A stretch of DNA of 64,000 nt, taken from positions 4,000,001 to 4,064,000 of the forward strand of contig OY762897.2 of assembly GCA_963666515.2 (NCBI GenBank), in the 5' to 3' direction. This document shows, piece after piece, positions 7,199 through 7,378 of this stretch. Made by a program: the position numbers and the translations under genes. How positions within the stretch are numbered: position 1 is the stretch's first letter; every line of letters begins with the position of its first letter. The DNA comes from Candidatus Binatia bacterium (GTDB lineage: Bacteria > Desulfobacterota > Binatia > UBA9968 > JAJDTQ01). The notes below the pieces were generated by a model, which did no database searches, was not told where the DNA came from, and saw only the letters and a program-made list of their open reading frames with translations.

Positions 7199-7227
7199 AA
7201 GATAATCCTACAGAGGACTAATGTCAA
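7199..7227 (-). promoter_or_regulatory. Sigma70-type promoter of the cas operon
   Basis: TTGACA (7227-7222), 17-nt spacer, TATCTT (7204-7199). Confidence 0.8.
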
Positions 7228-7235
7228 TCCCTAAA

Positions 7236-7255
7236 AACCCTACAAAAACAATAAA
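7236..7255 (-). promoter_or_regulatory. Self-target (PAM plus partial protospacer) of the mini-array spacer in the cas promoter
   Basis: TTT PAM (7255-7253) then ATTGTTTTTGTAGGGTT versus spacer ATTGTATTTGTGGGGTT; 15/17 match, mismatches at 6 and 12. Confidence 0.8.
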
Positions 7256-7293
7256 CTTTTCTTGCTCTATATTCGGGCTAACCGGGAGGAGTG

Positions 7294-7378
7294 GGCTGCA
7301 TTGCAGGATTGTATTTGTGGGGTTAAAGGTGTGCCCTGTGCGCATGCTTCCGGGTCGTAAGGCCCGGCTTCATTGGTG
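7294..7378 (+). CRISPR. Degenerate one-spacer mini-array / crRNA-like regulatory RNA (CreR-like)
   Basis: Partial repeat end GGCTGCATTGCAGG (I-G repeats end in about GGCCTCATTGAAGC), ~36-nt spacer 7308-7343, near-full repeat ATGCTTCCGGGTCGTAAGGCCCGGCTTCATTGGTG with CCGGGTC-GTAA-GGCCCGG hairpin. Confidence 0.8.

Follow-up and report, generated by a model that had tools for sequence, protein, structure and literature searches.

A degenerate mini-CRISPR upstream of a type I-G cas operon is likely a creR-type gene directed at the cas7 promoter

We analyzed a 64,000-nucleotide (nt) stretch of a Candidatus Binatia genome (G000:C1:4000001-4064000, the whole of which is called the window here), which carries the interference operon of a type I-G CRISPR system on its minus strand. 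A degenerate two-repeat mini-CRISPR occupies 7272-7379 on the plus strand, divergent from cas7, the first gene of that operon, and begins 115 nt upstream of it. We consider it likely that this element is a creR-type gene whose RNA guides the type I-G Cascade to bind, not cut, the DNA upstream of cas7 and so to repress the cas7 operon. The sequence evidence, taken with the CreR and mini-array cases that have been tested in types I-B, I-E, V-A, and I-F1, makes CreR the most likely reading of the element. Its parts and those of its presumed target, including the protospacer adjacent motif (PAM), are the following.

7268-7273, plus strand: TATATT, a possible -10 box of creR, read from the sequence; a TAnnnT stands at a similar place in relatives
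7272-7307, plus strand: PsiR1, the degenerate first repeat, whose last 8 nt (7300-7307) are the handle-like ATTGCAGG
7308-7343, plus strand: PsiS, a 36-nt spacer-like sequence, of which positions 1-17 (7308-7324) are complementary to the target
7329-7345, plus strand: weak hairpin within the non-pairing 3' half of PsiS, with 6 pairs (2 of them G-U), -6.2 kcal/mol, z -0.87
7344-7379, plus strand: PsiR2, the degenerate second repeat, with a hairpin (7350-7367), CTTC, and the handle-like ATTGGTGT (7372-7379)
7253-7255, minus strand: PAM, 5'-TTT, on the spacer-like (non-target) strand
7252 down to 7236, minus strand: target protospacer of 17 nt; the plus strand is the one with which the RNA would pair
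7199-7227, minus strand: sigma-70-like cas7 promoter (10/12), with the -35 box TTGACA (7227-7222), a 17-nt spacer, and the -10 box TATCTT (7204-7199)

When positions 1-18 of the spacer were aligned with minus-strand 7252-7235, 15 of the 18 matched, the mismatches fell exactly at positions 6, 12, and 18, and there was no pairing further on; all 15 non-sixth positions within 1-17 matched. A preliminary description of this DNA, made from the sequence by a model, had claimed just these three mismatches and the loss of pairing after position 17, and the alignment bears it out. Both the TTT that it had placed before the site and the 8-nt distance that it gave to a TTGACA -35 box were confirmed by the sequence and a promoter scan: 8 nt separate the end of the 17-nt paired stretch from the -35 box, which begins at protospacer position 26. 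The cas7 promoter is the sole sigma-70-like site in 7000-7800, where 0.2 such sites are expected from shuffles. A scan of the 4.67-Mb genome found the site upstream of cas7 to be the only full match at 15/15 non-sixth positions, the runners-up being three sites at 12/15 without a TTN PAM. The TTN PAM and the flipping out of every sixth base, which the preliminary description had given for type I-G and for Cascade, respectively, agree with the text of the preprint on the studied I-G effector, which also describes an 8-nt handle cut 4 nt after the hairpin (10.1101/2022.08.08.503147).

The repeats of the element were compared with those of the type I-G array of the same genome, which lies at C1:3996660-3997305, about 10 kb from the mini-CRISPR, and consists (in minus-strand reading) of 8 identical 36-nt repeats and a degenerate terminal repeat, with spacers of 36-41 nt. 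PsiR2 is identical to the native I-G repeat at 24 of 36 positions, a score reached by none of 500 shuffles, while 173 of 500 shuffles do as well against the repeat of a second, I-C-like array situated far off in the genome at about 133.5 kb. These scores make PsiR2 kin of the native I-G repeat and not of the I-C-like repeat. Its hairpin has 7 base pairs (bp), 7350-7356 with 7361-7367, and folds at -13.8 kcal/mol (z -2.09). The native stem CCGAGGCC/GGCCTCGG has become CCGGGTC/GGCCCGG by deletion of one A-T pair on both sides, with one pair now G-U; this compensatory deletion keeps a 7-bp stem. The stem is followed by 4 nt and a further 8 nt that are handle-like, in agreement with the published cut geometry of Csb2. 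In PsiR1, the handle is identical at 6 of 8 positions to ATTGAAGC, the last 8 nt of the native repeat, and the unit as a whole is weakly repeat-like (23 identities with gaps, equaled by 12 of 500 shuffles). The 36 nt of PsiS equal the length of the shortest native spacers. The handle-like sequence and the 36-nt spacer, divergent from cas7, thus stand where the preliminary description had put them, and the repeat-like unit with its hairpin does start at 7344, but it ends at 7379, one base beyond the 7378 first given. BLASTN-short searches with the true I-G repeat detected neither pseudo-repeat, the element escaped both tandem-repeat and generic repeat finders, and Rfam held no family matching the window or 8 related loci.

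Related loci were drawn from two sources. Cas7g was present in 15 of 61 related genomes (that of the window included), all within one genus, and a scan of public genomes provided 80 further loci, kept out of at least 551 relatives, with Cas7g 52-86% identical; these span Alpha- and Gammaproteobacteria, Spirochaetia, Chloroflexota, Acidobacteriota, Bacillota, and others. Locus L048, being the same place as L002, was counted once. Under a register rule (ATTG eight bases before the spacer, a perfect match at positions 1-5, and at least 13/15 non-sixth positions), 25 of 95 loci matched, and the flank was TTN in 23 of the 25 (TTT 7, TTA 6, TTC 5, and TTG 5). The 5+1 register and the TTN PAM foreseen in the preliminary description are thus found across loci, and the register is specific: the same search rule with 8 other 4-mer anchors gave a TTN-flanked match in 2 of 760 locus-by-anchor tests, and on reversed sequences it gave 0/95. 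A register-blind rule (ATTG anchor, TTN, and at least 14/18 matches) found 22 of 94 loci, versus 1 in reversed sequences. From these 22 we removed L054, where one array repeat matches another, and L046, which is without PsiR2, and added L003. The full architecture is present in the resulting 21 of 94 related I-G loci, window included, in several phyla and with spacers that differ between loci; as the scan reached 630-930 nt upstream of cas7 only, and 6 of the 80 fetched loci had less than 530 nt upstream, 21/94 is a lower bound. Three further candidates were not counted as CreR-like, namely L058, a palindrome with a CAT flank, and L034 and L060, which reached 13/15 only.

Across the 21 loci, the PAM is TTN in 20, and matches were counted position by position. 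Positions 1-5, 7, 8, 13, and 14 match in all 21 loci, positions 10, 11, and 17 in 20, position 15 in 19, and position 16 in 18, while position 9 matches in 13. At the sixth bases the matches are at chance level (6 loci at position 6, 8 at position 12, and 6 at position 18), and positions 19-36 match in 2-10 of 22 loci. Since the selection rule was blind to register, the chance-level values at the sixth bases and beyond position 17 are real signals. The own target is the best or joint-best for each spacer in 21/21 loci and uniquely the best in 17, and spacers set against the targets of other loci score 6.8/15 on average.

Spacer and target have also changed together. In an alignment of 10 loci from the window's clade, both partners have changed in 10 of the 15 spacer-target pairs, with 94.7% of the cells paired. 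For the whole structure in these loci, 96.3% of cells are paired versus 86.0% in shuffles (0/500 reach the observed value) and 24-50% in slid controls, and all 7 pairs of the PsiR2 stem are 100% paired. RNAalifold on 16 aligned creR regions recovered only 4 PsiR2 stem pairs because the alignment is poor, and single-sequence folds were used instead. In 7 of the 10 clade loci protospacer positions 24-27 mark the start of a good -35/-10 pair; the -35 box of other clades is nearer to, or within, the paired stretch. The two closest orthologous loci both retain the element: in L002 (Cas7 87% identical) the target is the same, spacer position 12 differs, and the PAM is TTG, and in L003 (Cas7 78% identical) positions 10 and 16 have changed in both spacer and target. 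Three loci of the same genus with Cas7 about 45% identical (L016, L012, and L013) have very different spacers, each of which matches a TTN-flanked site upstream of its own operon with mismatches at positions 6 and 12. Every sequence-level prediction of the preliminary description, from kinship with the genome's real I-G repeat to spacer-target co-variation upstream of homologous cas7 genes, PAM, and register, came out positive. A side observation concerns L006, a distant I-G locus, where a solitary repeat-like hairpin with a CTCATTG tail lies about 20-55 nt upstream of cas7 on the opposite strand, with no detectable spacer-target pair.

We hypothesize that creR is transcribed away from cas7 and that Csb2, a Cas5-Cas6 fusion, cuts its RNA to about 72 nt, comprising the 8-nt handle, the 36-nt pseudo-spacer, and the PsiR2 hairpin. 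Once loaded into type I-G Cascade, this RNA would lead the complex to read the TTT PAM at 7255-7253 and to pair with the plus strand at 7252-7236 through spacer positions 1-5, 7-11, and 13-17. The remainder of the complex would cover the cas7 -35 box (7227-7222), and probably also the creR promoter on the PAM side; as that side overlaps the -35 box expected upstream of TATATT (7268-7273), creR may repress itself as well. RNA polymerase would then be blocked and transcription of cas7-csb2-cas3g lowered. Confined to three Cas7 segments, the pairing would not reach the length that licenses Cas3 to cut the chromosome. If the analogy with tested CreRs holds, ordinary CRISPR RNAs (crRNAs) or anti-CRISPRs that draw Cascade away would relieve repression, and creR might in this manner sense crRNA load or anti-CRISPRs.

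Several points weigh against this reading. The transcription, processing, loading, and repression, and the absence of cleavage, are steps that we infer; the sequencing runs listed for this sequence comprised 4 DNA-type rows from one study and no RNA run. For creR itself, the promoter scan of 7000-7800 called no promoter on the plus strand. A convincing hairpin is missing from PsiR1 at 4 nt ahead of the expected cut (fold z -0.43), which is a difficulty for the making of the 5' handle. According to the text of the I-G effector preprint, Cas3 belongs stably to Cascade, and R-loops form efficiently only with it (10.1101/2022.08.08.503147); with Cas3 pre-bound and aiding R-loop formation, the safety of a 17-nt pairing from cutting is not assured. 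The Csx17/Cas8g profile (TIGR04113) has no match in the genome, and so the subunit make-up may differ from that of the studied effector, although the same profile was also silent in 14 control genomes; a gene of the NF049934 'Cas3-extension' family stands in the operon instead of a Csx17/Cas8g match. The PAM of L003 reads CTT, not TTN. In 73 of 94 loci no such element was found within 630-930 nt upstream of cas7, and it must there be dispensable or located elsewhere. Finally, the loci were picked by a matching rule, and the high counts at paired positions are partly so by construction, which does not apply to the low counts at positions 6, 12, 18, and 19-36.

The RNA might be made and loaded as proposed but have a different output, be it self-repression only, a mark for primed adaptation, or a Cascade decoy. 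In favor stand the overlap between the PAM side of the target and the expected creR -35 box, and the fact that Cas3 travels with Cascade in type I-G. What is conserved across clades, however, is the placement of the target, over the -35 box of the cas7-ward promoter or immediately upstream of it; chromosomal priming would be harmful, and pure decoys of the Racr type (PMC10651486) need no conserved target. We regard such an output as very unlikely.

A CreA-type antitoxin RNA shares its architecture with CreR, so that the element might belong to a CreTA module, in which the RNA silences a toxin beside its target and the cell becomes dependent on Cascade, with no tuning of cas expression. An open reading frame (ORF) of 61-69 amino acids (aa), a possible cargo, comes first under the targeted promoter in at least 8 related loci, but this small ORF has no family match. 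In the window, the target's last paired base and the cas7 start codon are 78 nt apart, the gap being taken up by the promoter, a short leader, and a ribosome-binding site. No ORF of at least 21 aa lies between target and cas7, as is also the case in L002, L003, and L016, and in the window there is no room for one. With nothing between target and cas7, the CreTA reading fails in the window, and we give it very little weight overall.

We hold it no more probable than CreTA that the element is a functionless relic, either a remnant from the decay of an old array's end or a self-targeting spacer with most of its match lost. Other stray repeat copies do lie past the trailer of the real array, and Shmakov et al., in the text of their preprint (10.1101/2023.03.03.530964), hold many stand-alone repeats to be sporadic. 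Complementarity retained through two-sided changes is unexpected for a relic, however, as are a constant spacing from the -35 box, a TTN PAM in 20 of 21 loci, and a stem saved by a two-sided deletion.

Inverted repeats near promoters are commonly operators, and the two arms here, 55 nt apart, share one intergenic region; a palindromic operator for a protein repressor, with the repeat-like parts a coincidence, would account for this much. It would leave the sixth-base mismatches unexplained (matches in 6-8 of 21 loci, against 18-21 at most other positions and 13 at position 9), and the best register is specific. One arm, moreover, always stands after ATTGNNNN and before the repeat hairpin, and the other always after TTN, so that an operator is in our view highly improbable, more so than a relic. 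That the region simply encodes protein, through an 89-aa ORF with an ATG start that covers the element (7221-7490, plus strand), has next to no probability, since the ORF has no Pfam or NCBIfam match, the linker indels of relatives are not multiples of three, and conservation tracks RNA and DNA features, not codons.

The preferred reading, a CreR-type RNA, has close parallels in other subtypes. According to the preprint text, CreR represses the cas promoter in type I-B (Haloarcula hispanica), type I-E (Salmonella enterica), and type V-A systems (10.1101/2023.03.10.532045). Like these, the element described here is a degenerate mini-CRISPR in a cas intergenic region with no toxin gene attached to it; the handle bases survive in PsiR1 and the 3' hairpin in PsiR2, and a PAM-flanked site at the cas promoter is matched by the pseudo-spacer in its 5' part. 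It differs in its effector, which is I-G, with the Csb2 fusion at the 3' end and Cas3 pre-bound; in the unpaired half of its pseudo-spacer, which in I-G often folds a hairpin of its own; and in its pairing over a fixed, three-segment 17 nt, unlike the 15 consecutive nt given in the CreR preprint for S. enterica I-E. In an I-F1 system (Pseudomonas aeruginosa YL84), the text of Shmakov et al. (10.1101/2023.03.03.530964) describes a mini-array RNA that represses the cas promoter and predicts autoregulatory mini-arrays also in types I-E, I-D, and I-B. The I-F1 mini-array resembles the present element in being divergent from the cas genes, in having a canonical PAM and mismatches at 6 and 12, and in targeting the promoter of the Cascade operon; as described there, its upstream repeat is better kept and was found by BLASTN, whereas the two repeats in the window are too decayed for BLASTN-short. 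CreA of the CreTA modules of types I-B and I-F has the same RNA architecture and likewise guides Cascade to repress through partial pairing, but in the text of those reports (PMC9458426; 10.64898/2026.06.02.729485) CreA silences the adjacent toxin CreT, and the window has no such gene between target and cas7. More distant parallels exist in class 2. Two RNAs derived from CRISPR, tracr-L of type II-A and scaRNA of Francisella, likewise act through partial complementarity and make the effector repress a promoter, the effectors being single proteins and the RNA anatomy differing from that of the I-G element. Both RNAs are named in the text of 10.1101/2023.03.03.530964.

The preliminary description could not say whether an I-G case had already been characterized. 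We found none, yet the CreR preprint mentions, in a sentence of its text that refers to Figure S7, creA-like elements seen by hand for 'I-U' (= I-G) (10.1101/2023.03.10.532045), and that mention means that the idea is not new for the subtype. Table 1 of Shmakov et al. lists mini-arrays in 0.04 of 235 I-G loci, against 21 of 94 loci of one Cas7g clade here, and the preprint text names no I-G target (10.1101/2023.03.03.530964). Beyond that sentence and that table row, our search of the literature, which covered the preprint texts, returned no paper on an I-G or I-U CreR, CreA, crlRNA, or mini-array. The principle of RNA-guided self-repression of cas genes has been known since 2021-2023, and no new category is opened here; the comparative picture, with about one-fifth of one Cas7g clade, a fixed 17-nt limit, and a constant -35 spacing, may go beyond what is in print. 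If our reading holds, RNA-guided cas self-repression extends to I-G, the least studied type I subtype, and to many phyla, and such elements can escape searches by repeat homology, as BLASTN-short misses both pseudo-repeats. Because the I-G effector holds Cas3 before target recognition, the element would be a natural test of how much pairing is tolerated before cutting; the 17-nt limit in 21 loci would suggest a threshold, and this could guide the use of I-G for silencing rather than deletion.

It is possible, though we put it forward tentatively and think it less likely than the general reading, that type I-G has a CreR design of its own, with four features: pairing in exactly three Cas7 segments (17 nt), a hairpin in the unused half of the pseudo-spacer that would stop R-loop growth or shorten the complex, a deliberate mismatch at position 9 in about one-third of the loci, and control, in many loci, of the 61-69 aa gene before cas7, which could serve as a toxin-like safeguard or constitute a new small Cas subunit. 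An I-G CreR of this kind would be a distinct variant and a natural model of a Cas3-loaded Cascade that binds DNA and leaves it uncut.

The hairpin, weak in the window, is stronger in relatives, with a minimum free energy of -5 kcal/mol or lower in 13 of 16 loci and z of -1.5 or lower in 10 of 16; among the native spacers of this genome, 2 of 7 fold to -8 or lower. It measures 5-9 bp, lies just ahead of the PsiR2 hairpin, and has stem sequences that vary by clade (the window, L002, L003, L039, L028, L027, L026, L020, L024, L016, and L012). The position-9 mismatch, in the middle of the second 5-nt segment, occurs in 8 of 21 loci (L024, L028, L029, L038, L039, L062, L074, and L086); one of the eight would be a G-T wobble, and the window matches at this position.

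The 61-69 aa ORF follows the targeted promoter and precedes cas7 in no fewer than 8 loci, among them L020 (3792-3998), L024 (1740-1949), L027 (3789-3998), L028 (1818-2027), L029 (1413-1616), L039 (3794-3979), L012, and L013, and in these loci the CreR-targeted promoter is about 240-280 nt upstream of cas7. The N-terminal half of the product is loosely conserved and the C-terminal half variable. No Pfam or NCBIfam family matches it, it is absent from the window, L002, L003, and L016, and a profile of 8 of these small ORFs found no more members among short ORFs upstream of cas7 in 42 loci. It may represent a small component of the Cas machinery or a cargo of the CreT kind.

The interference operon in the window comprises the following genes.

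5907-7157, minus strand: cas7g/csb1, first gene of the operon (TIGR02570, 82.1 bits, cut-off 38; PF09617)
4387-5910, minus strand: csb2 (Cas5-Cas6 fusion), the expected processing nuclease by its published role (TIGR02165, 285.4 bits, cut-off 45)
1463-4390, minus strand: cas3g, helicase-nuclease (TIGR02621, 789.8 bits, cut-off 400)
495-1598, minus strand: type I-G 'Cas3-extension family' protein, last gene of the operon (NF049934, 148.7 bits, cut-off 65)

The ORF of cas7g as listed begins at 7175, but homologues align starting at MIDLQ, which favors the ATG at 7157 as the most likely start. Immediately beyond the window edge lie cas4g/cas1g (NF049935, 786.4 against a cut-off of 560), cas2 (40.6 against 24.5), and the CRISPR array. 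Csb1/Cas7g, Csb2, Cas3g, and the Cas4g/Cas1g fusion all exceed their curated NCBIfam cut-offs, and the locus is assigned to type I-G.

Genes for a Phd-family antitoxin and a VapC-like toxin (window 38-349 and L099:11598-12041, both on the minus strand) split the I-G locus between the interference genes and cas4g/cas1g. Searched against a phage collection for protospacers that would reveal the native PAM, the whole native array gave chance-level matches only (E = 0.7); this search did not extend to plasmids or to the genomes of relatives. Past the array trailer there are two stray copies of the I-G repeat, one a near-complete 34 nt (L099:8254-8287; G000:C1:3996254-3996287) and the other a 17-nt 3' half with the handle (L099:8532-8548; 3996532-3996548), and for the sequence after either copy the whole genome contains no partial target flanked by TTN. 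On the far side of creR, an ORF of about 76 aa (window about 7410-7640, minus strand) is convergent with it and matches no family; it is conserved in L002, where the changes are synonymous. Next to it, the gene at 7654-8712 (minus strand) encodes a truncated AAA-ATPase-like/PD-(D/E)XK protein.

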